A DNA stretch of 59,753 nt from Candidatus Atribacteria bacterium (GCA_029556475.1 JAKQEP010000076.1:1-59753); one strand, 5' to 3'. Numbered from the stretch's first letter, positions 5,074 to 30,458 are shown. Translations and numbers: made by a program. The notes: generated by a model not told the origin, from the letters alone.

Positions 5074-5132
5074 ACTAAACTTCACCTTTATTATTCATAA
5101 TAATCTAAGCCTTTAATCAGACTTCTTGAAAA

Positions 5133-5996
5133 TTATTTTATTTTTTTAAGGTAGTTCAGGATTTCTTTTTCCACCTCTTCTTTTAGACGATAACTATGCT
5201 CTTCATCCGGGAAAAGGCCGGTTTTTACCTCTCTATCAAATTCTGAAAGTGCCTTAACAATTTCCTGGCCAATTTGTGCATATTTTTTAACAAATTTGGG
5301 AACAAATCTTTCAAACAAACCCAATAAATCATGTATTACTAACACTTGAGCATCACAAAAAGGTCCAGCGCCTATTCCTATAGTGGGGATTTTAAGTCTT
5401 TCAGTAATGACTTTAGCAACTGGATTTGGAATACCCTCCAGTACAATACTGAAAGCACCGGCTTCTTCTAGGGTTAAGGCGTCTTCAAGTAATTTCTCAG
5501 CAGCTATAAGATTCTTGCCTTGAACTCTAAAACCACCCAATTGAGAGCTACTCTGAGGAGTTAGACCGATGTGACCCATTACTGGTATACCAGCCCTGAC
5601 TATGGCTGCAACTGTATCTGCCATTCTTTTTCCTCCTTCTAATTTGATGCAATCTACTTCGGCTTCTTTCATAAATCTCCCGGCATTTTCTATTGCTTTT
5701 TCTTTGCTCACTTCGTAAGAAAGGAAAGGCATATCTCCTACAATAAATGTATTAGGTGCTCCCCTCACCACAGCTTTGGCTAAAATTATCATAGTATCAA
5801 GATTTATTGGAACAGTACTCTGCAGTCCTAACATAACCATTGCTGCTGAATCTCCTACCAGTATCATTTCAATATCAGTCTTGTTTACCTGAGTAGCTAA
5901 AGCAAAATCATATGCAGTGACCATGGTAAATTTTTTTCCTTCCAGTTTCATGAAAATGAAATCTGGAATCATTGTTTTCTTTTTAATTTGTTCCAT
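5133..5996 (-). CDS. panB: 3-methyl-2-oxobutanoate hydroxymethyltransferase
   Basis: TAYD, LVGDS, GDMPF, KLEGG, GHIGLTPQ, IGIGAG, LVIHDLLG motifs intact. Confidence 0.97.
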   Translation of the reverse strand: MEQIKKKTMIPDFIFMKLEGKKFTMVTAYDFALATQVNKTDIEMILVGDSAAMVMLGLQSTVPINLDTMIILAKAVVRGAPNTFIVGDMPFLSYEVSKEKAIENAGRFMKEAEVDCIKLEGGKRMADTVAAIVRAGIPVMGHIGLTPQSSSQLGGFRVQGKNLIAAEKLLEDALTLEEAGAFSIVLEGIPNPVAKVITERLKIPTIGIGAGPFCDAQVLVIHDLLGLFERFVPKFVKKYAQIGQEIVKALSEFDREVKTGLFPDEEHSYRLKEEVEKEILNYLKKIK

Positions 5997-6010
5997 CTTG
6001 TTTTCTCCTT

Positions 6011-6946
6011 CTAAATATTTATTTGTTTCTCATATTTTTCTTCTATTGCCCTTATCAATTCAGTTATCATCTGATTAAAGGGAGTGGGTATATTAACCAT
6101 TTCTCCTTCTTTAACAATAGCTCCATTTATAAAGTCTATCTCAGTTTTTCGTTTTCTTATAACATCCTGTAGCATGGAATTTATATTATTCTCTGTCTTT
6201 TTACAGATAGAGATAACTTCATTGAGCATATCTTCATGAGTTAACTTAATTCCTTTTTTCTTAGCTACCTGTACTGCCTCTTCAACCAGAGCTCTTTGTA
6301 TTTTTGGAGAAAATTCTCCTTTAACAATTTCGCCATTTTTAACTCTCATCAATACCCCTAAAGCATTAATTCCAACATTGATCACGAGTTTACTCCAGAT
6401 TAACCCCAATACATTCTGATTAATTTCAGTTTTGATCCCAGATTGATTGAGAACTTCTGCAATATCTTTGATACGAGTAGTTAATTTACCATCCAATTCA
6501 CCAATGGCAGTTGGGCCAGTACCAGCATGTAACACTTTGCCTGGTCCTAGTATAGTAGCTCCAAACGAAGTTGTTCCGGCTATGACTTTTTCTTTTCCAT
6601 ATATTTTACTTAATATCTCAGTGTTGCCCAAACCATTTTGAAGAGTCAGCAGGGAGGTATTCTCACCTATTATCGGTAAAAGCTTATTGGCAGCTTCTTC
6701 AGTATGATAAGATTTAACAAAAATAACTATTAAATCTGGTTTGCCTTGAATCTCTTCAGTTTCAGTACTTGCTTCAATTTTAACAAACCTATTTCCACTT
6801 AATCCTTCAATCCATAAGCCCTTATTGTTGATGGCATCTACATGCTCCTTCCAGATATCTATCAGAAAGACCTGATTACCCGATTCTGCGAGTAATCCGC
6901 CAAAAAGAGAGCCCATGGCACCAGCACCAACTATATTTATTCTCAT
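6011..6946 (-). CDS. panE: 2-dehydropantoate 2-reductase (ketopantoate reductase)
   Basis: GAGAMG, VKSY, LQNG, WSKL..N, SMLQD, TEIDFING motifs; 14 nt upstream of panB. Confidence 0.93.
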   Translation of the reverse strand: MRINIVGAGAMGSLFGGLLAESGNQVFLIDIWKEHVDAINNKGLWIEGLSGNRFVKIEASTETEEIQGKPDLIVIFVKSYHTEEAANKLLPIIGENTSLLTLQNGLGNTEILSKIYGKEKVIAGTTSFGATILGPGKVLHAGTGPTAIGELDGKLTTRIKDIAEVLNQSGIKTEINQNVLGLIWSKLVINVGINALGVLMRVKNGEIVKGEFSPKIQRALVEEAVQVAKKKGIKLTHEDMLNEVISICKKTENNINSMLQDVIRKRKTEIDFINGAIVKEGEMVNIPTPFNQMITELIRAIEEKYEKQINI

Positions 6947-7050
6947 GATATATTTTCCTTTAACATTTCTTACTTGTGTGTAATTTATATAAATAATATT
7001 ATTTCAGATTAAAATATTTTACTGATGGACTTCTTTTTTATTTAATAAAA

Positions 7051-8043
7051 TTAAAATAAATCTTTATAACATGGAAATCCATACAATGATTCGGTATTTT
7101 TTACCGCTTTGACTACTGCCTGTGCCATCACTTCAGCGGCTAATATCCCCACTAAGTTTACTTCCGCTTCTACCTTATTGGTCGCAGAGCAAAAGATTGT
7201 GTCACCATCAAACATGGTATGGGCAGGAATAATTGTTCGAGCATAACCATTCTGTGCCATCATAGCTACTTTAGTTGCACCAGCCTTTGTTAAAATAGCA
7301 TTGGTAGCAATGACACCTATAGTTGTATTGGCAGGGAATTGAGCTGAACTATTTTTTGTCAGAGATCTCCTTTTTAAATAAGAAATAGTATTAATAAATT
7401 GCTTCTTATCTTCCGCCAAAGCACCGGCAATAATCCTTCCACATTGTGGATCAATAACATCTCCAAAACAATTGACTGCAACAAGTGCACCCACAATCAG
7501 GTCATCACATTTTAAACTAGCTGAACCAATACCACCCTTCATACAATGTTTTAAACCCAATACTTTTCCTACTGTTGCGCCTGTTCCTGCCCCAATATTG
7601 CCCTCTCTGTTTTCTTTATCAGTAGCATTCAAACAGGCTTTATATCCCATCTCGGCATCCGGCCTTGCTCTAAAATCAGCCACACCCAAATCAAAAAGAA
7701 CTGCACCCGGAACGATGGGAACTTTGATAAATCCAACATCAAATCCCAATCCCTGTTCTTCTAAATATTGCATAACACCAGTTGCCCCATCCAGACCAAA
7801 GGCGCTGCCACCACTTAGATAGATAGCATGAGCTTTGTCCACTAAATTTACCGGATTCAAAAGGTCGGTTTCTCGTGTGCCAGGGGCCCCACCTCTTACA
7901 TCAACTCCTGTAATTGCCCCTTTCTCAAAAATCACAACTGTACATCCAGTACCGCCTTTTAAATCTTGACTGTGGCCCACTTTTACCCCGGAAACATCAA
8001 TAATGGAATTCTTTAATATTTGTAAATTGTTAGAAGATTTCGT
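7051..8043 (-). CDS. DmpA/OAT-superfamily (peptidase P1/S58) self-processing amidohydrolase, ThnT/NylC-like
   Basis: GCTVV, DVRGGAPGTRETDLL, GGSAFGL, VPIVPGAVLFDL, GAGTGATVGK, N|TTIGVIATNA autocleavage motif, PAHTMFDGDTIF. The frame is open to ACG at 8043, behind SD GAGGTG; first canonical start is GTG 7980. Confidence 0.88.
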   Translation of the reverse strand, partial: TKSSNNLQILKNSIIDVSGVKVGHSQDLKGGTGCTVVIFEKGAITGVDVRGGAPGTRETDLLNPVNLVDKAHAIYLSGGSAFGLDGATGVMQYLEEQGLGFDVGFIKVPIVPGAVLFDLGVADFRARPDAEMGYKACLNATDKENREGNIGAGTGATVGKVLGLKHCMKGGIGSASLKCDDLIVGALVAVNCFGDVIDPQCGRIIAGALAEDKKQFINTISYLKRRSLTKNSSAQFPANTTIGVIATNAILTKAGATKVAMMAQNGYARTIIPAHTMFDGDTIFCSATNKVEAEVNLVGILAAEVMAQAVVKAVKNTESLYGFPCYKDLF

Positions 8044-8094
8044 GGTATTTCACCTCTTTTTATAAAATTATTTTCAAAAATTAAGAAAAGTGGG

Positions 8095-9327
8095 TTACCA
8101 AACCTCTTCGTTTAGAAACAACATAGCTGTTAGGACGTAAATTTTTACTGTTTCAACTAATTCTTCAATTTCAACATATTCATTGATCTGATGAGGTATC
8201 AGTCTATTACCAGCACCGATGGTTACAATGGGAATACCTTTCCATGAATTCAAGAAAGTTCCATCAGTTGCTCCAGGAACTCCATTATAAATGGGTTCCT
8301 TTTTGCTTATATATCTATATGCTTCAGATATAGCTTTGACAATAGGCTCTTCGGGCGAAGTTTCTGTCCAGGGTCGTTCCTCAAGAACTTCCATATCAGC
8401 CTGGAAGTTACCATCTTTTTTAGAGAGTTTTTTAAAAATATTTATAATAGATTTTTTTATAATTTCATGATTTTGTCCAGGAACAGTCCTGATATCTATG
8501 GTTGACATACATTCCTGTGGAATAACATTGATTTGTGCCTCACCTTGAACCGGTGCTTTCAGTATTGTTGGGGTAAAACTAGGGTACCCCAAAAACTTGT
8601 GTTTGCCTAATCTTTTAATCTCTTTCTGCTGTAGCTTTTCTAATTCTAACAATATTTTTGCCATACCCCAGTTGGGATTGATTCCAGCTTCAGGCATAGC
8701 ACCATGAGCCATTTTACCTTTTACCACTATCTTTACTCTTAGCGCACCTTTCTGATAAATACAGATATTGTTTTCTTCGGGTTCACAAATAATTGCTGCA
8801 TCAACTTTATCAGCCCACCCCTGTTTAATAAAATGTTTTATACCTAACATCATGCCTTCTTCATCAACGGGAATACATAATATGATTTCACCTTTAAATT
8901 CAGCTTTTGCATCTATAATAGCTTTAACTGCGTATATCATAGCTGCTAAATTACCTTTGGTATCACATGCTCCCCTTCCATAAATCTTACCTTCATGGAT
9001 GATAGCTTCAAATGGTGGGTATTTCCATTCTTCCGGGTTACCTTCAGTTACAACATCGGTATGCGCCTCAAAAAGCAATCTTCTTCCATCTCGTTTTCCC
9101 TTAATAATTCCTATTACATTAGGCCTACCAGGCACTACTTCATCAATAAAAACCTCTATACCCATACTTTTTAATTTGTTAGCAACAAAATGGGCTACCT
9201 TTTCTTCATTGAATCCTTCTTTTTTAGTATGAAATACACTTTTAATTCTAACCAAATCCTGAGTAAATTGAATAACTCCCTTTTGGTCAATATTGTTGAC
9301 AATATTATCATATTTTGAAATAGACAA
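8095..9327 (-). CDS. M20 family metallo-amidohydrolase (ArgE/DapE-like)
   Basis: Metal-ligand motifs AHTDVV, GRGACDTKG, DEE, CEP and C-terminal PHQINEY; HGAMP dimerisation region. Confidence 0.9.
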   Translation of the reverse strand: MSISKYDNIVNNIDQKGVIQFTQDLVRIKSVFHTKKEGFNEEKVAHFVANKLKSMGIEVFIDEVVPGRPNVIGIIKGKRDGRRLLFEAHTDVVTEGNPEEWKYPPFEAIIHEGKIYGRGACDTKGNLAAMIYAVKAIIDAKAEFKGEIILCIPVDEEGMMLGIKHFIKQGWADKVDAAIICEPEENNICIYQKGALRVKIVVKGKMAHGAMPEAGINPNWGMAKILLELEKLQQKEIKRLGKHKFLGYPSFTPTILKAPVQGEAQINVIPQECMSTIDIRTVPGQNHEIIKKSIINIFKKLSKKDGNFQADMEVLEERPWTETSPEEPIVKAISEAYRYISKKEPIYNGVPGATDGTFLNSWKGIPIVTIGAGNRLIPHQINEYVEIEELVETVKIYVLTAMLFLNEEVW

Positions 9328-9360
9328 TTCTTTTATTTATTCTCCTTATTTATTTTCTTA

Positions 9361-9404
9361 AGCCCCTCTTACTTATTTTAAATATAAAATTAAGAAGAGG
9401 GGCT
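9361..9404 (-). other. Stem-loop between substrate-binding gene and M20 gene, no U-tract (likely mRNA-stabilising)
   Basis: AGCCCCTCTT...AAGAGGGGCT perfect 10-bp arms plus an imperfect AT inner stem; followed on the minus strand by A-rich sequence and an SD, not by U residues. Confidence 0.6.
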
Positions 9405-9460
9405 GGATTGGTTAAATAACTGATATTTTATTTGTTTGTTTCACTATTTAGCAATCAATA

Positions 9461-10639
9461 TTATTTTGCCATAGCTTTAAATACTTTCTCTCCATTCTCT
9501 ATTTCAAACAAGAAAGTTCCTTTACCGGTAGGCACTCCATCAGTCATATCCCAGGTCAATTGAATTCCTTTGAAGCCTTTTACGTTCCGGCAATAGTCTC
9601 TTATTTTAATCCTTTCCTCGGCCAATTTTGCGGGGTCACCTGTTACTCCGGTGTTTTCAATTGCTTCTTTAATCATATAAACACTATCATAATAATTGGT
9701 GGAAAGAGAAGCTGGTTCTATCCCATTGTGGTCTTTTTTGTAAGCTTCTCTGAATGCCTGCCAGCGTGGATCATCTAAGTTCAGGTCAATATAGTTATAA
9801 ATTGAAATCCCTTCTAAACTATCACCACCAGTGGTGTACAAAGCAGTATCATCTGCACTACTGAAGACTAATATTTTTGATTTATCGGTCCAACCCTTTT
9901 TAACCAATTCAATAATAATTTTTGCTGCTTTTTCTGAATTACAGGTTAACATAATGCCATCAGGTTTCTGAGCTAAAGCCTTTAATACAAGAGGTTCAAA
10001 CATTATGGCATCAGTTGGAACATCAACCTGAGATAACATTTTCACTCCTGCTGATTCCAGACCAACGGCATGTGCTTCCGCCATGGGTGGCCAGGCAGCC
10101 CAGTTTTCAACAAACTGTACTACTGTTTTCATATCTGGATGTAATTTTGCCCAGGCAGCAGTGATGGGTGGAAGCTTTTCTTCAGTTATTGGATACCATG
10201 AAAGTGTCCAGGGGAAGTATTCAACTGCATATTCATAGCTGGTTGAAGAAACCATACTAAATAATCCAGCCTTTACTGCAATGGGTACTGCTGCCATAAT
10301 ACAAGCTTCCGGGACTGGACCCATTACTACCAACGCCGAATCAACCAGTTTAGCCATCTCCTCCATTGCTTTATCCTTATCTACACCTGTATCAATAATT
10401 TCGATTTTTATAGGTACTCCCCTTACTCCTCCAGCAGCATTTATCTCTTCAGCGGCTCTATTAGCACTCCAGGACATATATTCTCCAATGCTGGCTATTG
10501 GGCCTGTTATGGTGTTCAAGAAAGGAATATTCCACTCGCTGACTTTTACCTCCTGCCCAAATATATGGAAAGCAGAAGCAAAAACGATTCCTATCACTAA
10601 TATTAAAATACTAAAAAATCGCAATGTTTTACATTTCAT
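9461..10639 (-). CDS. ABC transporter substrate-binding protein, LivJ/LivK-like, divergent
   Basis: Signal peptide, TGPIASIG...AAEEINAAGGVRG, late YYDSVYMIKEAIE; adjacent to liv-type permeases and ATPases. Confidence 0.88.
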   Translation of the reverse strand: MKCKTLRFFSILILVIGIVFASAFHIFGQEVKVSEWNIPFLNTITGPIASIGEYMSWSANRAAEEINAAGGVRGVPIKIEIIDTGVDKDKAMEEMAKLVDSALVVMGPVPEACIMAAVPIAVKAGLFSMVSSTSYEYAVEYFPWTLSWYPITEEKLPPITAAWAKLHPDMKTVVQFVENWAAWPPMAEAHAVGLESAGVKMLSQVDVPTDAIMFEPLVLKALAQKPDGIMLTCNSEKAAKIIIELVKKGWTDKSKILVFSSADDTALYTTGGDSLEGISIYNYIDLNLDDPRWQAFREAYKKDHNGIEPASLSTNYYDSVYMIKEAIENTGVTGDPAKLAEERIKIRDYCRNVKGFKGIQLTWDMTDGVPTGKGTFLFEIENGEKVFKAMAK

Positions 10640-10798
10640 ACTATTTTTCCTCCTTTTTTTTCATTAAAATATCTTTATGGATGTCATTTTATTGTGTAAT
10701 ATTTTAAATCGCTCTATATTATCCCTCCTTTCTGATTTTCTTTTTAATACCCACTGCATAACAATTTTTTTAAAAAACTCCTTTGTATATCTAAATAA

Positions 10799-11653
10799 TT
10801 AATTAGTTATATATCGGGGTGATTTTATTTTTATGCTCCACAACATTTTTCTGGTAATCAAGCCCTCCGGTCTCAATAAGATGATGATTACCAGCAGCGC
10901 TCCGTAGATAACCAGACGCCAGGAAGCAATATTGCTGGGGAACATTAAAGGTATCCCCTGTAGAAAAAAAGCAGAGAGGATTACTCCCCACATAGTAGTA
11001 TATCCGCCAACAAATAATATACACATTAAATAACCAATCATACTAAAAGTAAAGAATTCTGGAGAAAGGCTTTTCACCAAAAAAGCATCCAGAATTCCTG
11101 CCATTCCGGCTATCGAGCATGATATTATTTGAAAAAACATTCCTAATTTTTTAATATCAACCCCCAGTGTAACGGCAACATCCCTGTCTATAAAAACAAC
11201 TGATGCAGCCCTTCCCCACCTGGAATGGTCAATCCTGAATACCAGTAATCCAACTAAAAACAATAAACTATAAATAATGGCAAGCATATTATTGGGGCCA
11301 GGGATATGGAAAAAGCCAATGGTACCTCCCAGAGTTCTCCAATTTTCAATAACTGTTTTAACAATAAAAACTGATGTTAGGCCAACAATAACAACTGTGA
11401 AACAGGGAGCATCCCCGATAGCCAAAGAAAATATAAAGGCAATTGTTGCACCAAATAATATCCCAATAATTAAAATCACGATAAATGGCCAACCCCACTC
11501 TCGCGCAGCAAAACCACCAAAATATGCTGTAATTGCCATACAAGCCACTATTAGAAAATTAAGCTGTCCTACTCTATATGGTAAATAAAGTGCCCATCCC
11601 ATTAGAACATAGATGCCGGCAAACCCTAAAAAGTAATAGGTAACCTCAGACAA
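10799..11653 (-). CDS. HAAT-family ABC permease (LivM-like)
   Basis: Multi-TM, GQLNF, SRWGRA, GGYTTMWG, RPEGL. TTG 11653 follows AAGGAGG (ORF track start 11671). Confidence 0.85.
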   Translation of the reverse strand: MSEVTYYFLGFAGIYVLMGWALYLPYRVGQLNFLIVACMAITAYFGGFAAREWGWPFIVILIIGILFGATIAFIFSLAIGDAPCFTVVIVGLTSVFIVKTVIENWRTLGGTIGFFHIPGPNNMLAIIYSLLFLVGLLVFRIDHSRWGRAASVVFIDRDVAVTLGVDIKKLGMFFQIISCSIAGMAGILDAFLVKSLSPEFFTFSMIGYLMCILFVGGYTTMWGVILSAFFLQGIPLMFPSNIASWRLVIYGALLVIIILLRPEGLITRKMLWSIKIKSPRYITN

Positions 11654-11690
11654 TATTAGCCTCCTTATCAATTGTTTATCTTAATATCTC

Positions 11691-12566
11691 TTATATTTTG
11701 ATACCAAATAATCCCCCGGGCTTCATCAAGACTACAATTAGCATTACCGCAAAAGCAATAACATTAGACCAGGAACCGGAAAAATAGCCTATAGCCATAG
11801 CTTCAATTATTCCTAATAGCAGGCCACATACCAATCCACCCTGTAAATTACCTAATCCCGCTACAATTGATACAGCTAGCATCTTTAAAGCAACAAATTC
11901 ACCTAACCAGGGAGATGCTGACCCAATGAGCATTGAAAATAGTATTGCTGAAAATCCCCCTAAAATTCCAACAATTAGATAACTAAAAATACTGGTCTTA
12001 ATAATGGGAATACCTACCAGGCAAGCAGCAAAACGGTTTTCAGCTATAGCCCTAAAAAATCTACCCTGATTAGTATGATACAGGAGGAAGAAAAATATCA
12101 GCACTGCAATAATTCCACCCAATAAGGCAAATAACTGCCCTTTTGATACAGTAATCAATCCATAACCAAAAATGTTTCCACCCACCCAGTCGGGAGAAAA
12201 AGCAACAGGAAAACCATAGTTAATAGAATGAGACATAATGTCCATCATAATCATAGCTATTCCCATAGAAGCGATAAACGAAGCATTAATATCTACACCC
12301 TCAATGCTGCTAATCTTCCTAAAAATAGGCTCACTTAATAAACTTAGAATTATTGAAACAGATACACCCGCCAGAATAATAATTAATTTATTTCCGGTTA
12401 ATTTTAAAACCCACCAACAGGTGTACATTGATACCACCACTATCTGGGGATATGCAAATTGTATAATTTTTGCTACCAAAAGCATTAAATTGAATCCGGT
12501 AACCAGTAATACATAAATACTGCCTAATGCCAATCCACTAATTAGCTGGGCTATAAATATTTCCAT
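11691..12566 (-). CDS. HAAT-family ABC permease (LivH-like)
   Basis: QLISGLALGSIY.L...G, T..GR..RAIAEN..AA.LVGI, GLGNL.G, KPGGLFG. Confidence 0.88.
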   Translation of the reverse strand: MEIFIAQLISGLALGSIYVLLVTGFNLMLLVAKIIQFAYPQIVVVSMYTCWWVLKLTGNKLIIILAGVSVSIILSLLSEPIFRKISSIEGVDINASFIASMGIAMIMMDIMSHSINYGFPVAFSPDWVGGNIFGYGLITVSKGQLFALLGGIIAVLIFFFLLYHTNQGRFFRAIAENRFAACLVGIPIIKTSIFSYLIVGILGGFSAILFSMLIGSASPWLGEFVALKMLAVSIVAGLGNLQGGLVCGLLLGIIEAMAIGYFSGSWSNVIAFAVMLIVVLMKPGGLFGIKI

Positions 12567-12614
12567 ATATTCCTCTCTTAGAAATTATACAAAACAATTT
12601 TATCAGTTTATTGA

Positions 12615-13334
12615 TTAATTTCCACCAAGATAAGCTTGTCTAATTTTAGGATCATCTATTAAATCGGTAGAAAATCCAGACATAGCAATCTCACCAGTTT
12701 TCATCACATAGCAGCGATGGCTCCCCTCTAAAGCTTTTTTAGCATTCTGTTCTGCTAAAAGAATAGCATACCCTTCCTTGTTTAACTCTGTAAGAATATT
12801 AAATATGTCAGTGACTATTTTAGGAGCTAAACCCAGGGAGGGCTCATCTACCAATATTAGTTTTGGTTTGGACATTAAAGCTCTACCCATAGATAACATT
12901 TGTTGTTCGCCACCACTTAAGGTCCCCGCTATTTGGCTACTTCGATCCTTTAAAACAGGAAAATAATCAAATATCCTTTTTAAATTTTCTTCAAAATCTG
13001 CAAGGTTCTGATAAGCTCCCAGTTGAAGATTTTCTAAAACGGACATTGATGAAAAAATAACATGCCCTTCTGGGATAAGACTTAAGCCAGAGCTAACTAT
13101 CTTATCCGTTGGTTTTCTGGTAATATCCTGTCCTAAAAAAAAGATACTACCTTTCTCTGCTTTATTTATACCCAATATTGATTTCAATAAAGAAGATTTC
13201 CCGGCACCATTTGCTCCAATCAGGGCTACAAATTCTCCATGATTTATTTCCAGGTTAACCTCTTTCACTGCTTTTATAGGACCATATGCGATTGAAAGGT
13301 TACAAATTTCTAAAATATTATTTATTTTCTCCAA
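12615..13334 (-). CDS. HAAT-family ABC ATPase (LivF-like)
   Basis: GANGAGKS, LSGGEQQML, DEPSLGLAP, AYLG end. Probable TTG start 13334 after GGAGG (ORF track extends to 13403). Confidence 0.92.
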   Translation of the reverse strand: MEKINNILEICNLSIAYGPIKAVKEVNLEINHGEFVALIGANGAGKSSLLKSILGINKAEKGSIFFLGQDITRKPTDKIVSSGLSLIPEGHVIFSSMSVLENLQLGAYQNLADFEENLKRIFDYFPVLKDRSSQIAGTLSGGEQQMLSMGRALMSKPKLILVDEPSLGLAPKIVTDIFNILTELNKEGYAILLAEQNAKKALEGSHRCYVMKTGEIAMSGFSTDLIDDPKIRQAYLGGN

Positions 13335-14091
13335 GATATGCCTCCAACACCCTGGGATCCTTTTGAATTTGTTCTGGACTACCTTCGCTAATTTTGTTTC
13401 CAAAATCTAATACTGTAATCCTATCTGAAATTTCAGGAATCAGGTTCATATCATGACTAACTACAATCACAGTGATTCCCATGTTTCTTATTCTTCTGAT
13501 AATATCCATAACCGCTTTAGACTCATCTATACCCATACCAGAGGTAGGCTCATCAAGCATTAACAAATCTGGACTGGATATTAAAGCACGGGCAATCTGT
13601 ACCAATTGCCGTTCGACCCAGACTAGTTCACTGGTCCATCTTTCAGCAAAATCTGATATTCCAATAAATTTTAACATTTCCAAAGCACTGGTTTTAATAT
13701 CTTTCTCTTGATTTTTAAATTGTGATGGTTGAAAAAAGAAGGATTTTACAGGATTGGGACTGATATGATACTTTCCAGACATTACATTATCCAGAACTGT
13801 TAGATTGGGTACCAGTTTCCCTGCCTGAAAAGTTCTGCTTATACCCATCCTAGTGATTTCTTCAGCAGGAAGATTGGTTATTTCCTTCGATTTAAAATAT
13901 ATATTTCCATCAGTAGGTGGATATAATCCTGAAACAACATTAAAAAAAGTAGACTTTCCTGCACCATTCGGGCCAATTAAACCATGAATTTTATTCTTCT
14001 GAATTTCAATATCAATATTCTTAAGTGCCTGTAATCCGCCAAAAGATTTGCATAAATTTTTTACTTCTAATATTGCCATTTCCTCTTCCAT
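13318..14091 (-). CDS. HAAT-family ABC ATPase (LivG-like)
   Basis: FGGLQAL, GPNGAGKST, SRTFQ, LDEPTSG, DPRVLEAYLG. Confidence 0.92.
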   Translation of the reverse strand: MEEEMAILEVKNLCKSFGGLQALKNIDIEIQKNKIHGLIGPNGAGKSTFFNVVSGLYPPTDGNIYFKSKEITNLPAEEITRMGISRTFQAGKLVPNLTVLDNVMSGKYHISPNPVKSFFFQPSQFKNQEKDIKTSALEMLKFIGISDFAERWTSELVWVERQLVQIARALISSPDLLMLDEPTSGMGIDESKAVMDIIRRIRNMGITVIVVSHDMNLIPEISDRITVLDFGNKISEGSPEQIQKDPRVLEAYLGENK

Positions 14092-14125
14092 CAGGGAAAC
14101 TCTCCTCTAAACTAAACTGTTTCAT

Positions 14126-14154
14126 ATGATAGTAAAAATCAAATTAGTTGTCAA
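14126..14154 (-). promoter_or_regulatory. Sigma70-type promoter of the ABC-M20-P1-panE-panB unit
   Basis: TTGACA (14154-14149) -17 nt- TATCAT (14131-14126), 35 nt upstream of the livG-like start. Confidence 0.75.
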
Positions 14155-14274
14155 AAATTACTTTAATTTGAAATTAGCTATAATATTTTAGAATAGCTGT
14201 AGTTAAAAAATTATCTTTCAGAAAAAATGTAAAGAAACAATATATACAGTCCGTCTACTTCCTCCCAAGAAATT

Positions 14275-14306
14275 TATGTGCTGACTTTTTAATAAGTCAG
14301 CACATA
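14275..14306 (-). terminator. Hairpin ending the vor operon
   Basis: 13-bp perfect stem TATGTGCTGACTT/AAGTCAGCACATA, 6-nt loop, weak U tail (AATTTCTT). Confidence 0.6.
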
Positions 14307-14363
14307 CACATAAATAGGAAGTTTAAGGTAAAAGACAGTTAAATTTTTAAAATATATTTAATC

Positions 14364-14903
14364 TTACCCGATAATAATTTTTTCTCCTCTTTTAAGTGCT
14401 TCTTTGTTTAGTTCAATGATTTTTTCTGAACCTTTACCAAGTGTCTGTTCTAAAGCTTCAAAGACTGTTTGCATCTTCACACTTTTACTTTTGGCAATAT
14501 AGCTACCCAATGCTACCATATTGGCAACCCTTAAATTACCCAGTTCGTTGGCAATGTCGTTAGCTGGAACTTTCACCACCTCTACATCATCTCGGTAAAT
14601 ATTACGAGAAATGAGTGATTGATTAACTATAATCGTACCACCTTTTTCTACTAAAGGTTCAAATTTATCTAAAGATGGTAAATTCATAGCAATTAAAGAA
14701 AGGGGATTAGGGACTACCGGAGAGGCAACTTCTTCTGAAGAAATAATCACAGTACAATTTGCCGTTCCTCCTCGCATTTCAGGACCATAGGAAGGCATCC
14801 ATGCTACATGTTTTCCCTCTAACATGCCAGCATGGGCAATCAATCTTCCCATTAAAAGAATTCCCTGACCACCAAATCCGGCAATAATTATTTCATCTAA
14901 CAT
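14364..14903 (-). CDS. 2-oxoacid:ferredoxin oxidoreductase gamma subunit (VOR-type)
   Basis: [24 protein letters not shown]. Confidence 0.92.
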
Positions 14904-15668
14904 TTAAGATACCTCCTCCACATTTTTAAATTCACCTAAGGGGTAGTATGGTATCATCTTTTCATTTAGCCATTCATTGGCTTCTTTGGGGCTTAATCCC
15001 CAGCTGGTAGGACAGGTAGAAAGAACTTCTACCAGAGCAAATCCTTTACCATCAAGCTGATATTGAAAAGCTTTTTTAATAGCCTTCTTGGCTTTTACAA
15101 TATAAGCTGGTTTTGTCAGGGCAACCCTGGCAATATAGGCAGGGCTATTTAAGGTAGAAAGTAACTCACAAATCCGGATTGGCATTCCCATAGTTTTTGA
15201 ATCCCGTCCATAAGGTGAAGTTTGGGTTATCTGGCCTTCCAGTGTTGTTGGAGCCATCTGGCCGCCAGTCATACCATAAATGGCATTATTAACGAAAATG
15301 ACTGTTATTTTTTCACCTCTATTAGCAGCATGAACTATTTCGGCAGTTCCTATAGAGGCAAGGTCGCCATCTCCTTGATAAGTGAAGACTATATTATCTG
15401 GCTTTACCCTCTTTATACCAGTAGCTATAGCTGGTGCCCTTCCGTGAGCAGCAACTATCATATCACATTCAAAAAAGAGGTAAGCAAATACAGCACAACC
15501 TACCGGAGCAATACCAATAGTATCTTCAGCTATATTTAAATCATCCATTGCCTCAGCAACTAATCGGTGAATAATACCATGGTGGCAACCGGGGCAATAA
15601 GTAAAAGGTACATCTGTTAAAGATTTAGGTTTGGTAAATACTTGTTTCATCAATTTTTTTACCCCCAT
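14904..15668 (-). CDS. 2-oxoacid:ferredoxin oxidoreductase beta (TPP-binding) subunit, VOR-type
   Basis: [44 protein letters not shown]; true start may be the ATG of MKQVF. Confidence 0.92.
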
Positions 15669-15719
15669 ATTTTTTCATAAACAATGTTTTTATAATTATC
15701 TGATGTTATTCTATACTAA

Positions 15720-16775
15720 CTAATCTAATAATTTTTTTACTTCTTGCAGAATTTCTATTGGAGAAATAACTACCCCGCCGGTTCTGCCATAGAAACTAAC
15801 TTGTGACTTGCCTTTAACTGCCAATTTAACATCTTCAACCATCTGTCCCAGACTCATCTCAGTTACCAAAAACTTGTCTACTTTATTGGCAACTTCTTCA
15901 ATTGCAGCATACGGAAAAGGATAAAGAGTAATGGGTCTAACTAATCCAATATTTATTCCTTCTTGTTTCGCTTTTTGAATAGTAGTCTTTACAATTCTAG
16001 CTATACTACCGTACGCAACTATGACTATGTCCGGGTTATCAATATTTACCACTTCATATTCTACTTCTTTTTGCATGTCCTGATATTTCTGGCCGAGTTT
16101 ATTTACTATTTTCTCTAACTCATTGGGGTCCAGGTCAAAGGGCACTATTCTTCTTGGTTTTCTTCCATGACTGGAACCTAGAGCCCAATCTTCTTTTGAA
16201 GGGATATTCTTTTCATCAAATTCTTTAAATTGAACTGGTTCCATCATCTGACCCAATAATCCATCTCCTAAAATCATAGCTGGATTACGATATTTATCTG
16301 CCAGACTAAAAGCCCTAATAGTTAGGTCAACCAGCTCCTGCACTGAAGATGGAGCAAAAACAATGAGATGGTAATCACCATGTCCACCCCCTTTAGTAGC
16401 CTGAAAATAATCTCCCTGGGCTGGTTGAATAGACCCTAAACCAGGCCCTCCTCTCATTATATTGACTATTACACATGGTAATTCAGCACAGGCAAGATAA
16501 GAAATCCCTTCCTGTTTTAAACTAATTCCCGGACTGGATGAAGAAGTCATTACTCTGCCACCAGCTGCCGAAGCCCCATAAACCATGTTAATCGCAGCAA
16601 TCTCGCTTTCGGCTTGAATAAAAGTAGCGCCTTTTATTTTTAACAAGCGTTTAGCCATGTAAGCAATCAATTCGCTCTGCGGTGTTATGGGGTACCCAAA
16701 ATAATAACGGCATCCTGCATGGATAGCAGCCTCTCCAATTGCCTCATTCCCTTTCATTAATAATCTTTCTTCCAT
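15720..16775 (-). CDS. vorB: 2-oxoisovalerate (branched-chain 2-oxoacid):ferredoxin oxidoreductase alpha subunit
   Basis: MKGNEA, GYPITPQSE, QAESE, TSSSSPGISLKQE, RGGPGLG.IQP.Q.DY.QATKGGGHGDY typical of the VorB group; ptb/buk context. Confidence 0.85.
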   Translation of the reverse strand: MEERLLMKGNEAIGEAAIHAGCRYYFGYPITPQSELIAYMAKRLLKIKGATFIQAESEIAAINMVYGASAAGGRVMTSSSSPGISLKQEGISYLACAELPCVIVNIMRGGPGLGSIQPAQGDYFQATKGGGHGDYHLIVFAPSSVQELVDLTIRAFSLADKYRNPAMILGDGLLGQMMEPVQFKEFDEKNIPSKEDWALGSSHGRKPRRIVPFDLDPNELEKIVNKLGQKYQDMQKEVEYEVVNIDNPDIVIVAYGSIARIVKTTIQKAKQEGINIGLVRPITLYPFPYAAIEEVANKVDKFLVTEMSLGQMVEDVKLAVKGKSQVSFYGRTGGVVISPIEILQEVKKLLD

Positions 16776-16822
16776 TAATAATCAATCCTCCTTAAAAATT
16801 TAGATAGAAGTTTTTGCTCTTC

Positions 16823-17026
16823 TTATTTGTACACTTCTATAGCAACATCTGGACAGGTCATAGCACAAAAAGCACATCCGGTGCATTTTTCCGGGTTCAT
16901 CAACTCAGCAGGATGATAACTTTTTTTGTTAAATGATTTTGACATCACTATTATCTTTTGAGGACATATCAGTGTACATAACTCACAACCTTTACACCTC
17001 TCGCGGTCTATAATTATTTTTGCCAT
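16823..17026 (-). CDS. 2[4Fe-4S] ferredoxin-like delta subunit
   Basis: CKGCELC...CP and CTGCAFC...CP. Confidence 0.92.
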   Translation of the reverse strand: MAKIIIDRERCKGCELCTLICPQKIIVMSKSFNKKSYHPAELMNPEKCTGCAFCAMTCPDVAIEVYK

Positions 17027-17086
17027 ACAAAACCCTCCTTATCTATTTTTCGCATCTTACACTAACATTCATTACTTATTAATTTC

Positions 17087-17758
17087 TTATCCATCCCACG
17101 GTAAACTCATATATCGATGAATTGTCATTATTTTTTCTGAAAAATTATACCTTCCTATCTTCTGGTAAATAGATTCTTCAATTGTCAGATACTTTATTGG
17201 TAACCCAAGCTCTTTAGAGGCTTCCTTTACAATATTATGTCCTTTTATAATTGATTCAAGGTCTGTTTGTCCTCCTAAATTAGGATTACTGATCAAACTG
17301 TTAATCTTTAAGCGCGAGGATAGCTCCAACTCTCTGAGCATCTCAAATATCTGCTCGCTATTCTGGGTAAAAGGACGATATGGGTTAATGACCATTTCCA
17401 TCTGATATCCGACATCTTTTAATACCGGATAAAAACTAGCAATTGATTTGGCGCCAATATCATCTCCACCTAAATCAATAATTAGTCTTCGATTAGAATC
17501 TTCAAGCATCCCCTTAATTTCTGGAGCAATTAAAGGCAAATCAGCCATGGCAAATTTACCCGGAGGAGTAATTACTGTGATACCAATCCTTTTTAATTTT
17601 TCTTTCATATCTCTAGAACGAAAATAGGGATTAACAATATCTAAATCAACAATAACTACCTTTTCTTTTTTCTTTAAAGCTTCTATTGACTGATTGATAG
17701 CTATTTCAGTCTTTCCACTGCCAAAACTGCCTGTGTAAATAATTATTTCATCTTTCAA
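17087..17758 (-). CDS. Uncharacterised MinD/CobQ-like P-loop NTPase in the vor operon
   Basis: GSFGSGKTE, DLDIVNPYFRS, IDLGGDDIGA. TTG 17758 overlaps the buk TGA (TTGA); ORF track starts at 17809. Confidence 0.8.
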   Translation of the reverse strand: MKDEIIIYTGSFGSGKTEIAINQSIEALKKKEKVVIVDLDIVNPYFRSRDMKEKLKRIGITVITPPGKFAMADLPLIAPEIKGMLEDSNRRLIIDLGGDDIGAKSIASFYPVLKDVGYQMEMVINPYRPFTQNSEQIFEMLRELELSSRLKINSLISNPNLGGQTDLESIIKGHNIVKEASKELGLPIKYLTIEESIYQKIGRYNFSEKIMTIHRYMSLPWDG

Positions 17759-18828
17759 TAGATTCTTTCCTCCTCTTCTCCTCTTAAAACCCTTAAAGCA
17801 CCCTGACACAGTGAAAGCATTTCTTCTTCACCGGGATAAACCATAACTAAGGAAATAAAACTTACCCTATCTTTTATCATTTCAACAACCTGTAAGGAAT
17901 GTGATATACCTCCAGTTAGAACAATGGCATCAACATTACCTTTCAGTACTGTAGCTCCTTCTCCAATCTGCTTTGAAATCTGGTAGGCCATTGCCTCCAA
18001 AACTAGTTTTGATTTCTGGTCTCCTTTCATTACCTTTTCTATAACCATTTTTACATCATTAGTATTTAAATAGGCGATCAGCCCGCCTTTTCCTTTTATC
18101 ATAGACTTAATCTCACTCTGAGAGTACTTGCCGGAAAAACATAATTGCACCAGATCCCCCACCGGTACTGTTCCACTTCTTTCTGGAGAAAAAGGCCCTT
18201 CGCCATCTAAAGCATTATTAACATCGATCACCCTCCCTCTTTGATGTACTCCTACAGAAATTCCTCCACCCATATGTACAACTATGAGATTAACATCATT
18301 GTAATTTTTCCCTAAATCATAAGCCGCTTTTCGTGCTACAGCTTTTTGATTTAAGGCATGAAAGATGCTCTTTCTGGGAAGAAGAGGCATACCAGATATC
18401 CGTGCAATCTCGTTCATTTCATCTACAACTACCGGATCAACAATATATGCAGAAATTTTATTATGCCTGGATATTTGATAAGCTAATATTGCACCGAGAT
18501 TGGAAGCATGCTCTCCAAATAAACTTTGTTGGAGGTGGTTTATCATTCTTTGGTTAACCCGATAAGTTCCACTAACCAAAGGCTCTAATAATCCACCTCT
18601 GCCCACGACAGCATCAATGGTATTAAGATTAATTGATCTACTTTTTAAAAATTCTAAAATTACTTTTTCTCTGAATTCATATTGTTCAATAATACTATTG
18701 AACATCTTCAGTGAATCGCTGGAATGGGCTATTGTTTCAGTAAATAACATGGTATCATCTTTAAATAACGACAATTTTGTAGTTGTTGAACCCGGATTAA
18801 TCACCAGGATATGATAATTTTTTTCCAA
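17755..18828 (-). CDS. buk: Butyrate/branched-chain carboxylate kinase
   Basis: INPGSTTTK, VGRGG, HASNLG, DPVVVDE, HALNQKA, HMGGGIS, GPFSPERSG, LTGGI, PGEEEM. TTG 18828 after AAGGTGA (ORF track 18873). Confidence 0.95.
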   Translation of the reverse strand: MEKNYHILVINPGSTTTKLSLFKDDTMLFTETIAHSSDSLKMFNSIIEQYEFREKVILEFLKSRSINLNTIDAVVGRGGLLEPLVSGTYRVNQRMINHLQQSLFGEHASNLGAILAYQISRHNKISAYIVDPVVVDEMNEIARISGMPLLPRKSIFHALNQKAVARKAAYDLGKNYNDVNLIVVHMGGGISVGVHQRGRVIDVNNALDGEGPFSPERSGTVPVGDLVQLCFSGKYSQSEIKSMIKGKGGLIAYLNTNDVKMVIEKVMKGDQKSKLVLEAMAYQISKQIGEGATVLKGNVDAIVLTGGISHSLQVVEMIKDRVSFISLVMVYPGEEEMLSLCQGALRVLRGEEEERIY

Positions 18829-18853
18829 GAAAATCACCTTATATATATTATAT

Positions 18854-19765
18854 TTATTTATTTTGATGAACACTCATTAAAATAGCTAGCGCAATGGAAC
18901 GTACTTTAGAAACAGGGCAATCAGAACGAGAGACAATAATAACAGGCGCAGTTGTGCCTAATAATACTCCTGCCGGTTCAGCTTCTGCCAAATAGACCAG
19001 ACCTTTGGCAAATATATTACCAGTTTCAATTTCTGGCACTACTACTGCATCTACTTCACCACTTACCGGCGAATTAATACCTTTGTGCAATGCCGCCTCT
19101 TTAGAAATCGCATTATCAAAAGCTAATGGTCCATCTACTATTCCACCCATAATCTGTCCCCTATCGGCCATTTTAGACAAGCAGGCAGCATCAATACAGG
19201 CGGGCATATCAGGATTTACTACTTCTACTGCAGCCAATATGGCAATTTTTGGTTTCTCAATCTCTAAACAATGACAAAAATTGATAATATTTTGCACAAT
19301 TTGAACTTTTTGTTCCAGATTGGGAGCAATATTCATAGCACCATCAGTAACTGTGAGTAATTTGTCATAATGTTTCAACTTTAAAACATAGGCATGGCTT
19401 AACAATCGTTGTGTCCTTAGGCCAATCTCCTTGTCCAAAACAGCCTTTAATATGCGATCAGTACCTAACATACCTTTCATTAACAATTCTGCCTTCTTTT
19501 CTCTTACCAACTTAACTGCTATTCTCGCTGCTTCATTCTTATCCCCTTCATCGATAATTTCGTAATTCTTAGGGTTAATATTTAATTTTTTACAAACCTG
19601 TATAGTCTCCTCTTCATCACCAACTAAAATTCCGTTTACTAGCCCAATTACTCTTGCCTGTTCCACCGCATCCATTACATCTTCAGCTTGGGAAACTGCC
19701 ACTGAAATTTTTTTAGGACCGAAATGAACCGCCTTTTCTATTACTTCCTCAAAAGACTTTAACAT
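18854..19765 (-). CDS. ptb: Phosphate butyryltransferase
   Basis: LMKG, LLSH, TDGAMN, AAVEVVNP.MP, DGPLAFDNA, GN.FAK, SRSD; lies between two buk genes. Confidence 0.93.
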   Translation of the reverse strand: MLKSFEEVIEKAVHFGPKKISVAVSQAEDVMDAVEQARVIGLVNGILVGDEEETIQVCKKLNINPKNYEIIDEGDKNEAARIAVKLVREKKAELLMKGMLGTDRILKAVLDKEIGLRTQRLLSHAYVLKLKHYDKLLTVTDGAMNIAPNLEQKVQIVQNIINFCHCLEIEKPKIAILAAVEVVNPDMPACIDAACLSKMADRGQIMGGIVDGPLAFDNAISKEAALHKGINSPVSGEVDAVVVPEIETGNIFAKGLVYLAEAEPAGVLLGTTAPVIIVSRSDCPVSKVRSIALAILMSVHQNK

Positions 19766-19849
19766 TTTTAATTACCTCATTTTTAAAAAGATTAAGAAAA
19801 AACAGAAAAATTAATCATAATCAAAAATATGATAAATATTTTCTTATTT

Positions 19850-20941
19850 CTAATACTTTTTAGCTTCTTCTTCTCCCGTTAAAACTCTTAGTGCCCCCAT
19901 TGCCAATGCTTTCATTTCTTCACTACCCGGGAAAACCATTACCGGTGCAATAAATCCGACCCTTTCTTTAATCCAATTAACAAAGATATTTCCCAGTGCT
20001 CCATTTTCACCTGCCCCATTTCCGGTTATCACTATCCCGTCAACTTCCCCTTTTAATACTGTAGCCATTTCTCCAATACCTTTTGCTATCTGATAAGCCA
20101 TAGCCATATATATTAATTTGGCATTTTCATTACCCTTGGCAATTAATTCTTCTACTTCTAAAGTATTATTTGTACCTAAATAGGCAACAATACCGCCCTT
20201 TCCCATAACTTTATTACACATCTCTTTTAAAGTATATTGACCTGAATAGCACATTTTGATAACAGCCTGGACAGGCAAGCCACCAGAGCGTTCTGGAGAA
20301 AATGGTCCTTCACTGCTGGCATCATTAACATCAATCATTTTACCTTTTTGATGTGCACTGATAGAAATTCCTCCGCCTAAATGGACAACAACTAAATTAA
20401 TCTCTTGATAGGATTTGTCTAATTCTTTAGCTGCTCGTCGGGCCGCCGCTTTTAAACTGAGGGCGTGAGAAAGACTTTGTCTTTCAATTTCAGGAAGGCC
20501 GGAGATTCGGGCGATAGGTTCCATCTCATCCACTGCTACAGGGTCAACTATGAAAGAAGGAACTTTAATTCTCTGAGCAATTTCATAGGCAATTTGAGCA
20601 GCTAAATTTGAAGCATGCTCTATTCTGGGCCTTTCTCGTAATTCTTCCAACATATTTTTATTAATATAGTAAGTGCCGCTGGTTAAAGGACTTAAAATTC
20701 CGCCACGACCAACAATGGCATCAAGTTCTTTCAATAGAATATTGTTCTCTTCTAAAGATTGAAGTATGAGCTGTTCCCTAAATTGGTACTGATCCATAAG
20801 TTTATCAAACTTCTTTAATTCATCTAAACTGTGACGTATGGTTTTTTGGAAAATTTCATTACTTCCCTGGAATACTGAAATAGCAGTAGAAGTCGAACCG
20901 GGATTTATCACCAATACTCTAAAATTTTTTTCCTTCTTCAA
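19850..20941 (-). CDS. buk: Second, divergent butyrate kinase paralog
   Basis: INPGSTST, VGRGG, HASNL, DPVAVDE, HLGGGIS, GPFSPERSG; TTG start after AGGAGG. Confidence 0.9.
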   Translation of the reverse strand: MKKEKNFRVLVINPGSTSTAISVFQGSNEIFQKTIRHSLDELKKFDKLMDQYQFREQLILQSLEENNILLKELDAIVGRGGILSPLTSGTYYINKNMLEELRERPRIEHASNLAAQIAYEIAQRIKVPSFIVDPVAVDEMEPIARISGLPEIERQSLSHALSLKAAARRAAKELDKSYQEINLVVVHLGGGISISAHQKGKMIDVNDASSEGPFSPERSGGLPVQAVIKMCYSGQYTLKEMCNKVMGKGGIVAYLGTNNTLEVEELIAKGNENAKLIYMAMAYQIAKGIGEMATVLKGEVDGIVITGNGAGENGALGNIFVNWIKERVGFIAPVMVFPGSEEMKALAMGALRVLTGEEEAKKY

Positions 20942-30104: not shown

Positions 30105-30458
30105 TGGTGGAGGCGGCGAGAATCGAACTCGCGTCCAGAGAACCGTTGATAAAAAACACTACGAGCGTAGTCTATGAACTTTTTTTGCGATACTTAATAC
30201 CCATAGACCGGTTTCAAGTATGCTATCCCCTAATTTTTCTCTGTATCAATCGGAGCGGTTGATACAGATATCCTGTTATATATTACACCTATAAAAAGCT
30301 CACAGGCATAGCCTTTTTACAGATGAGCAGCTTTATTAAGCTGCTAAAGCCAATTCGTAATCGTTGGCAGTTATTGTTTTTCCCGTTGTTTATCGAGGAC
30401 CAGGAACCTCGGCTCGCATTTCTTACCTCTGTTTTCCCTGTCGATACCTATCGCCCCC
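30105..30458 (-). ncRNA. ssrA: tmRNA, tag (A)ANDYELALAA
   Basis: 5' GGGGGCG pairs with 3' CGCCTCC-ACCA including the G3.U alanine determinant; T-arm GCGAGTTCGATTCTCGC; ATAACT resume context then tag ORF 30368-30336. Confidence 0.96.

Follow-up and report, generated by a model that had tools for sequence, protein, structure and literature searches.

In a 59,753-nucleotide stretch of DNA from Candidatus Atribacteria bacterium (GCA_029556475.1 JAKQEP010000076.1:1-59753; hereafter the window), which is contig C78 of an 84%-complete metagenome-assembled genome (MAG; 173 contigs) of an uncultured Atribacterota bacterium, we identified a unit of importer, amidase and panE-panB genes, running from position 14154 to 5133, that is likely to be an operon for the uptake and fermentation of pantothenate (vitamin B5), and probably of pantetheine. 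For this catabolic reading the support from comparative genomics is strong, though none of it is experimental. It had already been preferred to a biosynthetic alternative in an earlier reading of the DNA (hereafter the sequence-only reading), a preference now supported by the absence of panC, by the conservation of the gene array and by the presence of PanF and beta-alanine genes in the neighbourhood of its Bacillota counterparts.

Gene identities were assigned from open reading frame (ORF) calls together with Pfam and NCBIfam profile scans (NCBIfam release of June 2026). ORF calling places every gene of the region 5133-20941 on the minus strand, and the unit in question has the order livG, livF, livH, livM, binding protein, M20, S58, panE, panB, with gaps of 14-159 nt (14 nt between panE and panB). 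The Liv-type importer, M20 enzyme, DmpA-type hydrolase, panE and panB proposed by the sequence-only reading were all recovered in place by the ORF, Pfam and NCBIfam analyses, as follows:

14154-14126, minus strand: sigma70-type promoter-like site, TTGACA-17-TATCAT, 11/12 matches, within the 272-nt vorG-livG gap
13318-14091, minus strand: livG-type ABC ATPase (PF00005 and PF12399)
12615-13403, minus strand: livF-type ABC ATPase (PF00005)
11691-12566, minus strand: livH-type permease (PF02653)
10799-11671, minus strand: livM-type permease (PF02653)
9461-10639, minus strand: HAAT-family binding protein, Peripla_BP_6 (PF13458, 144.8 bits)
8095-9327, minus strand: M20 (ArgE/DapE-like) di-metal amidohydrolase (TIGR01910 ArgE/DapE subfamily, 292 bits)
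7051-7980, minus strand: S58/DmpA self-processing amidase (PF03576, 138.1 bits, profile positions 22-301 of 307)
6011-6946, minus strand: panE, 2-dehydropantoate 2-reductase (TIGR00745, 303.5 bits against a cut-off of 141.35; PF02558 and PF08546)
5133-5996, minus strand: panB, ketopantoate hydroxymethyltransferase (PF02548, 371.8 bits; TIGR00222, 329.4 against a cut-off of 207.55; NF001452, 374.7 against 272)

The livF and livG reading frames overlap by 86 nt, and the real start of livF probably lies downstream of this overlap.

In the proposed mechanism, the HAAT-type ABC system would import the substrate with its own binding protein, the S58 enzyme would strip the distal group in a ThnT-like manner (pantetheine to pantothenate and cysteamine), and the M20 enzyme would act as a pantothenase, releasing pantoate and beta-alanine from pantothenate. 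PanE would then convert pantoate to ketopantoate, and PanB, running as a retro-aldolase, would convert ketopantoate and tetrahydrofolate (THF) to 2-oxoisovalerate and 5,10-methylene-THF. The PanB reaction is reversible, and systems composed of 2-oxoisovalerate:ferredoxin oxidoreductase (VOR), Ptb and Buk turn 2-oxoisovalerate into isobutyrate, ATP and reduced ferredoxin; one such system is encoded directly upstream and could take up the product in this way. The one-carbon (C1) unit would exit through the folate pathway, formate-THF ligase (FTHFS) being present in the genome, and beta-alanine would be processed by a class-III aminotransferase and a CoA-acylating (methyl)malonate-semialdehyde dehydrogenase (MMSDH), which are encoded together on contig C99 and are 81-84% identical to the pair that follows M20 in metagenomic locus L136. 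If this is true, one pantothenate could yield ATP three times, from isobutyryl phosphate (Buk), from formyl-THF (FTHFS) and from acetyl-CoA derived from beta-alanine. The same importer and S58 enzyme probably also meet the organism's own need for pantothenate. Beyond this locus, we lean towards a widespread anaerobic fermentation of B5, in which M20 would be the pantothenase, S58 a bacterial pantetheinase and PanE/PanB a reverse pair that saves the C1 unit on folate, with the same M20 marking the genes of the dimethylmalate route.

The residues of the M20 protein which we take, by DapE numbering, to be metal-binding or catalytic (H89, D122, E156/E157, E182 and H379) are invariant across 10 orthologs from three phyla. 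The protein does not reach the equivalog cut-offs of DapE or ArgE proper (NF006399, 210.9 against 381; TIGR01892, 168.9 against 297.7). In NCBIfam, it is covered at subfamily level but by no specific model, and the S58 protein by no model of any kind. From its gene context, we propose the M20 protein as the pantothenase candidate. As for the S58 enzyme, which had been assigned beforehand to the N/T-cleaving branch of its family, the assignment is borne out by residues N218-T219 in ANTTIGVIATNA ('ANTTIGV'), which align with the N-T site of ThnT ('NTTLAVVATDA'); the codon of Thr219 occupies 7324-7326. Self-cleavage at N218/T219 is predicted from this conserved site, and searches of the PDB matched a nylon-oligomer hydrolase (9cxr, E 8e-71) and ThnT (E 4e-47). 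ThnT converts pantetheine to pantothenate and cysteamine in thienamycin biosynthesis, DmpA/BapA-type S58 enzymes and some M20 enzymes free beta-alanine, and vanin, the animal pantetheinase, belongs to the CN-hydrolase superfamily. Homology and context together lead us to propose that the S58 protein is a ThnT-like hydrolase of pantetheine or of a pantothenate conjugate.

The importer comprises the HAAT-family set: a pair of ATPases, a pair of BPD_transp_2 permeases and one Peripla_BP_6 binding protein. This binding protein carries a signal-like segment at its N-terminus, and the solved LivJ and urea binders are all remote from it (best E 8e-12); its proposed ligand is pantothenate and/or pantetheine. 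Orthologs of the binding protein, at 57-90% identity, accompany S58, M20 or panEB in loci L057, L121, L046 and L058. In L057, the liv importer and binding protein are retained upstream of S58.

The closest solved relatives of PanE are ketopantoate reductases, and the protein passes the TIGR00745 family model with both domains present, while none of the narrower equivalog cut-offs is reached. By the general Rossmann rule, the Asp that closes beta2 ('FLID') is a hint of NAD(H) use; the ketopantoate reductase of Thermococcus uses NADH. The absence of panC and panD from the window, noted in the sequence-only reading, extends to the whole 84%-complete genome. Moreover, PanC (PF02569) was found in 1 of 86 Atribacterota genomes (G013, beside a panB of its own) and PanB above cut-off in 22 of the 86; within the genus of the window, panB is present in seven of eight other genomes and panC in none of the eight, at completeness of up to 98%. 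The missing panC is thus no binning artefact. Since PanC is lacking and both CoaX and CoaBC are present in the genome, the organism needs external pantothenate. To our knowledge, type III PanK does not use pantetheine. No PanT was found in this genome, and its PanF-like matches are distant (30% and 24% identity). An archaeal bypass through pantoate kinase and phosphopantothenate synthetase was considered and rejected: the sole match to PF02006 in the genome is a 25-residue N-terminal fragment (30.4 bits) at the end of the 1404-bp contig C104, which is probably a bin contaminant, and PF02006 was found in 0 of the 85 other Atribacterota genomes.

In a quick PanB tree, which included three panC-linked sequences and left out the truncated copy L117, the three panC-linked PanBs cluster apart from the module-linked ones, a result that lends the model weak support. 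The genome also carries a second panB (panB2), 51% identical to the copy in the window, on contig C55. Its neighbours, a D-2-hydroxyacid dehydrogenase, an M20D CpsA-like amidohydrolase and a threonine-dehydratase-like PALP enzyme, form a conserved cluster (C55:13110-21250; L003 5110-13252) that continues with a GCAxxG protein, an HI0933 flavoprotein, a P5C reductase and an aminotransferase. panB2 forms a long-branch clade of its own, is common in Atribacterota without panC, and may represent a second catabolic use of a PanB.

To place the two hydrolases in a wider context, we surveyed the neighbours of their relatives. Among the best 80 loci of 577 tblastn-confirmed S58 relatives, S58 directly follows an ECF S component on the same strand in 21 (gaps of 6-129 nt), and one lies nearby in two more. 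One of these S58-linked S components, compared with solved structures, matched only 4rfs and 6zg3, both of which are ECF-PanT according to PMC11521937. S58 directly follows an OPT transporter in L054, L139, L200, L203 and L204, and Clostridium homopropionicum has the order panB-panC-panD-MFS-PanT-S58.

A metagenome scan with M20 returned 51 loci, 16 of them at 42% identity or more. Pantothenate-related neighbours were found in 10 of these 16 closer loci; of the remaining six, two are too short and four have nothing recognisable nearby. Among the 35 distant homologs (at most 34% identity), none has these neighbours, except for a 33% PanF-like gene 8 kb off in L151. The arrays of the closer loci are varied in composition, those of L135 and L147 resembling the window. 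S58 precedes M20-panB-panE in L146, and L139 combines three amidases in the order OPT-S58-IclR-panB-M20-PanF-M20b-panE; L138 reads C45-M20b-S58-M20-aminotransferase and L143 M20-SDR-S58. In L140 (PanF-M20-IsoDH-SDR-ALDH) and L145 (PanT-S58-M20-IsoDH-SDR-ALDH) three oxidoreductase genes follow, the IsoDH of L140 scoring 474.8 bits against 470.4 for TIGR02089 (tartrate/D-malate dehydrogenase); SDR, ALDH and D-malate-type dehydrogenase are, we assume, the classes to be expected for pantoate 4-dehydrogenase, aldopantoate dehydrogenase and dimethylmalate dehydrogenase. L136 and L137 share the order liv-binding protein-M20-class-III aminotransferase-MMSDH (MMSDH 488 bits to TIGR01722, cut-off 448.5). 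The PanF proteins of these metagenome loci reach 599 and 690 bits (cut-off 328).

Similar results were obtained with a second sample, in which an M20 profile was run against 400 further Bacillota genomes and returned 13 new hosts (E at most 1e-100). PanF or PanT adjoins M20 in eight of the 13 (L200-L206, L212), the array includes panB and panE in four (L201-L204), a class-III aminotransferase is present in five (L201-L204, L206) and S58 in four (L200, L203, L204, L212); enzyme classes of the dimethylmalate route stand partly beside M20 in L206 and L212. The genomes of L203 and L204 lack panC and share the order PanF-M20-aminotransferase-panB-OPT-S58-panE-AOR-IclR, which in L204 is preceded by DUF997 and lies on one strand throughout. 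L201 reads CN-hydrolase-HutP-MMSDH-aminotransferase-panB-panE-DUF997-PanF-M20-SBP_bac_5, and L202 has IclR-FTHFS-panB-panE-AOR with DUF997-PanF-M20-aminotransferase a few genes on along the same strand. DUF997, which stands upstream of PanF in the Bacillota arrays, is presumably YhdT, the partner of PanF. The AOR genes within the PanF-M20-panB-panE arrays lie at 9114-11000 in L203 and at 1532-3382 in L204, and the array of L202 holds AOR and FTHFS genes (6259-7737 and 9697-11430); it is possible that AOR stands in anaerobically for the semialdehyde dehydrogenase and that FTHFS is the C1 outlet.

M20 is thus joined either to dimethylmalate-type genes or to panE-panB, both times together with pantothenate importers and beta-alanine catabolic genes. 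When a pantothenate importer and genes for beta-alanine degradation share an array with panB and panE, a biosynthetic role is difficult to argue. Furthermore, the recurrent PanF-M20 pairs on the one hand, and OPT-S58 and PanT-S58 pairs on the other, suggest which hydrolase takes which amide bond, and fit the earlier idea that the two amidases of the unit correspond to the two amide bonds of pantetheine.

A genome search for panB, panE, M20, S58 and HAAT genes co-located without panC, as the sequence-only reading had envisaged, found the arrays to be conserved, with panC absent from 85 of 86 Atribacterota genomes. The complete array, VOR followed by livGFHM-binding protein-M20-S58-panE-panB, is kept in L004, L122, L123, L124, L125 and L147; L135 covers the part of the array that runs from the binding protein to panB, and a fragment of it is found in L126. 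In another Atribacterota family, genome G042 (L121) has an IclR gene followed by the same importer and panE-panB. There, the places of S58 and M20 are taken by a self-processing C45 hydrolase together with another M20 (L121 5936-8917). The second amidase of the module is exchangeable, either for C45 plus a different M20 or for a CN-hydrolase, as in L201 (18278-19198), which lacks S58. G088 (L132, G088:C2) has no panE, and its panB, next to S58, is cut short at the N-terminus; panEB seems to have been lost in some strains. At nine loci of other Atribacterota (L005-L013), the gene after S58 encodes, in place of panE-panB, a UPF0182 membrane protein of 900 aa.

Outside this phylum, the spirochaete MAGs L046 and L058 carry S58, panE, M20 and a 61-63% identical binding protein together, and the spirochaete MAG L067 carries panB and S58 together. 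HAD phosphatases adjoin panB/panE in L046 and L120 and might dephosphorylate phosphopantetheine. The M20/S58/panE/panB module recurs in Spirochaetota (L046, L058) and in Bacillota (L054, L139, L201-L204). Among the latter, Wukongibacter (L054) has the order M20-OPT-S58-PanF-IclR-panB-panE, its PanF scoring 672.7 bits to TIGR02119 (cut-off 328); this genome holds four panB and two panC genes, including a canonical panB-panC pair elsewhere. As to the distribution of PanC among such hosts, it is absent from G176 and G217, encoded elsewhere in the genome in G213 and G139, and also present in G451, whose cluster has no panB/panE.

The boundaries of the unit were examined by scans for promoter-like and terminator-like sites, and the sigma70 promoter that had been placed at the head of the unit was found again. 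Promoter-like matches as a class are not enriched (69 observed against 75.5 expected), and since both promoter-like and terminator-like sites are no commoner than in shuffled sequence, their weight comes from position only. In the gaps from livG to panB, no terminator-like site was found by the scan, which agrees with the earlier statement that no clear terminator separates these genes; the minus-strand terminator-like matches at 11109, 10991 and 6897 fall within livM and panE.

The VOR, ptb and buk genes reported directly upstream are indeed there, and as such this part of the sequence-only reading stands; they form, however, a separate unit with a sigma54 promoter of their own and a hairpin end at 14306-14275. 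The features of this upstream region are:

14306-14275, minus strand: 13-bp hairpin downstream of vorG, from the terminator-like scan and sequence, with a weak T-tail
14364-14903, minus strand: VOR gamma (Pfam; POR_N/PFOR_II, TPP_enzyme_C and POR make up the set over alpha, beta and gamma)
14904-15668, minus strand: VOR beta (Pfam)
15720-16775, minus strand: VOR alpha (Pfam)
16826-17026, minus strand: VOR delta, a small 2x[4Fe-4S] ferredoxin, read from sequence as 2x CxxCxxCxxxCP
17087-17755, minus strand: P-loop ORF (GSGKT) between buk2 and VOR delta, inside the sigma54 operon
17755-18873, minus strand: buk2 (Pfam PF00871)
18854-19765, minus strand: ptb (Pfam PF01515)
19850-20941, minus strand: buk1 (Pfam PF00871)
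~20997-20982, minus strand: sigma54-type promoter, TGGCAT-N5-TTGCT, upstream of buk1-ptb-buk2-P-loop-vorDABG, read from sequence
21216-22733: PAS/sigma54 activator gene (Pfam)

The ORF at 17087-17755 had no Pfam or NCBIfam match in the profile scans. According to this layout, buk1-ptb-buk2-VOR is predicted to be a sigma54-driven operon distinct from the importer/amidase/panEB unit, and the hairpin at 14306-14275 likely ends it. Between the activator gene and buk1 lie a terminator-like hairpin (21030-21006) and then the sigma54 promoter, in a BkdR-like arrangement. The alpha, beta, gamma and delta subunits are those of a 2-oxoisovalerate:ferredoxin oxidoreductase (VOR-type), for which 2-oxoisovalerate is the putative substrate here. 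Ptb and the Buk proteins would take an acyl-CoA through the acyl-phosphate to the free acid with a gain of ATP. The genome holds a second buk-ptb-VOR cluster on contig C121 (53722-56884), and a second VOR-alpha-like gene lies near the end of the window (57158-58258).

The stretch occurs in 20 listed public runs (sludge, wastewater and digester), six of which are RNA libraries. The RNA evidence consists of Logan contigs, which carry no information on strand, level, transcript ends or single transcripts. Almost all of the region is covered by contigs from four of the RNA libraries (three studies), which bridge the panB/panE, S58/M20 and binding protein/livM junctions. As a weak hint, the contig of one library (X17) terminates at 14095, and no listed contig crosses 14095-14332, a pattern which fits two units. 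In one contig from another RNA library (X16), 20 other letters connect 5148 with 6848, the shorter side being 38 letters; this contig may derive from a relative without panB/panE.

Several observations weigh against the catabolic interpretation. Every substrate, as well as the direction of PanE and PanB, is inferred from gene content and comparative genomics; both proteins score as ordinary biosynthetic equivalogs, and their sequences give no proof of direction. The equilibrium of ketopantoate reductase favours pantoate, so that pantoate oxidation must be pulled by later steps. About 55 of the 80 S58 loci are without a pantothenate-related neighbour, as are five of the 13 new Bacillota M20 homologs (47-50% identity). 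FTHFS adjoining panB fits either direction, and the adjacency of VOR is confined to one Atribacterota family. PanC is not universally absent among hosts of the module, as G139, G213 and G003 have panC, and in G139 the sole panB is the cluster copy while panC lies elsewhere in the genome; PanB and PanE may serve both directions there. In the spirochaete MAGs L046, L058 and L067, whose completeness is not given, no PanC, CoaX or CoaBC was found. The RNA-library contigs may include DNA carry-over and show presence in RNA libraries only. Finally, no regulator gene was seen in the importer-to-panB unit of the window, and a pantothenate auxotroph that hydrolyses pantothenate would need some control.

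Among the alternatives, the one that survives best, unlikely as it seems, is that the true substrate of the module is a different pantoyl- or beta-alanyl-amide, such as pantothenoylcysteine, fragments of CoA or acyl carriers, or a natural product, with the amidases trimming variable head groups. The amidase set does vary (S58, C45, M20b, and the CN-hydrolase of L201), up to the three enzymes of L139, as do the importers (HAAT ABC, OPT, Dpp-like SBP_bac_5, PanF and PanT), and the binding protein of the window is without a characterised close relative. PanF and PanT, however, are pantothenate transporters by homology, and in L140 only PanF and M20 stand ahead of the pantoate-oxidising genes; from these two observations, pantothenate is at least an intermediate. 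This alternative refines the pantothenate model more than it replaces it.

We consider it very unlikely that PanB and PanE are biosynthetic and make pantoate, that M20 and S58 free beta-alanine from imported peptides, and that an unseen ligase joins both. Consistent with such a scheme, PanB and PanE pass biosynthetic equivalog or subfamily models, beta-alanine release is a known activity of DmpA/BapA-type S58 and some M20 enzymes, G139 combines panC with a sole panB inside the cluster, and the FTHFS beside panB could supply C1 units. Nevertheless, PanC is absent from 85 of 86 Atribacterota genomes and archaeal phosphopantothenate synthetase from all 85 others; a module beside beta-alanine-degrading genes (aminotransferase with MMSDH or AOR) and a pantothenate importer would make little sense for synthesis; Wukongibacter keeps its canonical panB-panC pair separately; and M20 orthologs elsewhere exchange panEB for enzyme classes of the dimethylmalate route. 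Salvage only, in which importer, S58 and M20 would free pantothenate for CoA synthesis in an auxotroph and panE/panB would be unrelated or relict, is highly improbable, for, although pantothenate import is required (CoaX and CoaBC without PanC, PanT or a close PanF), Clostridium has PanT-S58 pairs without catabolic genes, and panEB is dispensable in some strains (the state of G088; the RNA contig skipping 5149-6847), panE-panB and M20 are found together in tight one-strand arrays of three phyla, M20 has ties to beta-alanine catabolic and alternative pantoate-oxidising genes, and seven arrays within the Atribacterota family keep panB and panE intact.

On the biochemical level, the degradation of pantothenate was already known in the 1960s, and the classical aerobic Pseudomonas pathway reportedly comes from the Snell laboratory. 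This route consists of pantothenase (EC 3.5.1.22), pantoate 4-dehydrogenase, aldopantoate dehydrogenase and dimethylmalate dehydrogenase. It shares with the fermentation proposed here the first step, pantothenate into pantoate plus beta-alanine, as well as the end point, 2-oxoisovalerate. It differs in that the classical route would use the SDR/ALDH/IsoDH trio, whereas the unit of the window is without this trio and has PanE and PanB instead; within the genome, enzymes of the dimethylmalate route have only distant matches on other contigs (best IsoDH 37% identical). Two steps would replace three, and, instead of leaving as CO2 after oxidation to a carboxyl, C4 would be kept as methylene-THF, which suits a fermenter. 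The protein identity of pantothenase was still unknown in 2023 (PMC10393543). A literature search found nothing on an anaerobic pantothenate pathway, a pantothenase gene, an S58-PanT link or genes of the dimethylmalate route, and no description of the route that the sequence-only reading had taken to be undescribed; subscription papers and supplements lay outside this search. We regard the locus as a probable new anaerobic branch of pantothenate catabolism, linked to folate, which also yields candidate genes for the old route.

The components themselves resemble, and depart from, known systems. The PanB and PanE of the window belong, with high scores, to the same families as those of canonical PanB-PanE-PanC(-PanD) biosynthesis; in contrast to the latter, the genome lacks PanC and PanD and almost the whole phylum lacks PanC, an importer and a pair of amidases are encoded in the same unit, and the proposed direction is reversed. 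The S58 protein is of the same family as ThnT/NylC-type hydrolases and conserves their N/T self-cleavage site, but it is 309 aa long against 419 for ThnT, stands outside an antibiotic cluster and, unlike ThnT, belongs to a widespread anaerobe ortholog group (the 577 relatives above) linked to PanT, OPT and HAAT importers. The M20 protein shares fold, di-metal ligands and catalytic Glu with the DapE/ArgE deacylases, whereas its context is pantothenate-related and not that of lysine or arginine biosynthesis. The upstream operon shares activator, sigma54 promoter, ptb, two buk genes and four-subunit VOR with Bkd/VOR-Ptb-Buk fermentation, the sigma54 activator before buk-ptb-VOR presumably following a BkdR-like logic; it would be a general sink for branched 2-oxoacids and not a dedicated part of the B5 unit.

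The locus and its relatives supply testable gene candidates for the orphan pantothenase, for a bacterial pantetheinase and for the three classical-route enzymes, and suggest a catabolic use, in anaerobes, of two enzymes that textbooks assign to biosynthesis. If this is true, the reading of panB and panE changes in predictions of vitamin auxotrophy and cross-feeding, in that panB and panE without panC would mark a B5 consumer and not a partial producer. B5 and CoA fragments of dead cells would thereby be candidate fermentable substrates in digesters and sediments, which are habitats of Atribacterota.

On the panB side, the unit is followed by a NUDIX gene (4537-5085), a TIGR00375 gene, dnaG and rpoD. 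The NUDIX protein was considered as a CoA pyrophosphatase feeding the pathway and dropped, as it matches NudE/ADP-ribose-type models only, all under cut-off; in L004 and L122, an intervening gene separates it from panB. A whole-window Rfam gathering scan found no leader riboswitch or other known RNA apart from a tmRNA gene and two tRNA genes, which lie on the minus strand at 30105-30458 and 32162-32316.

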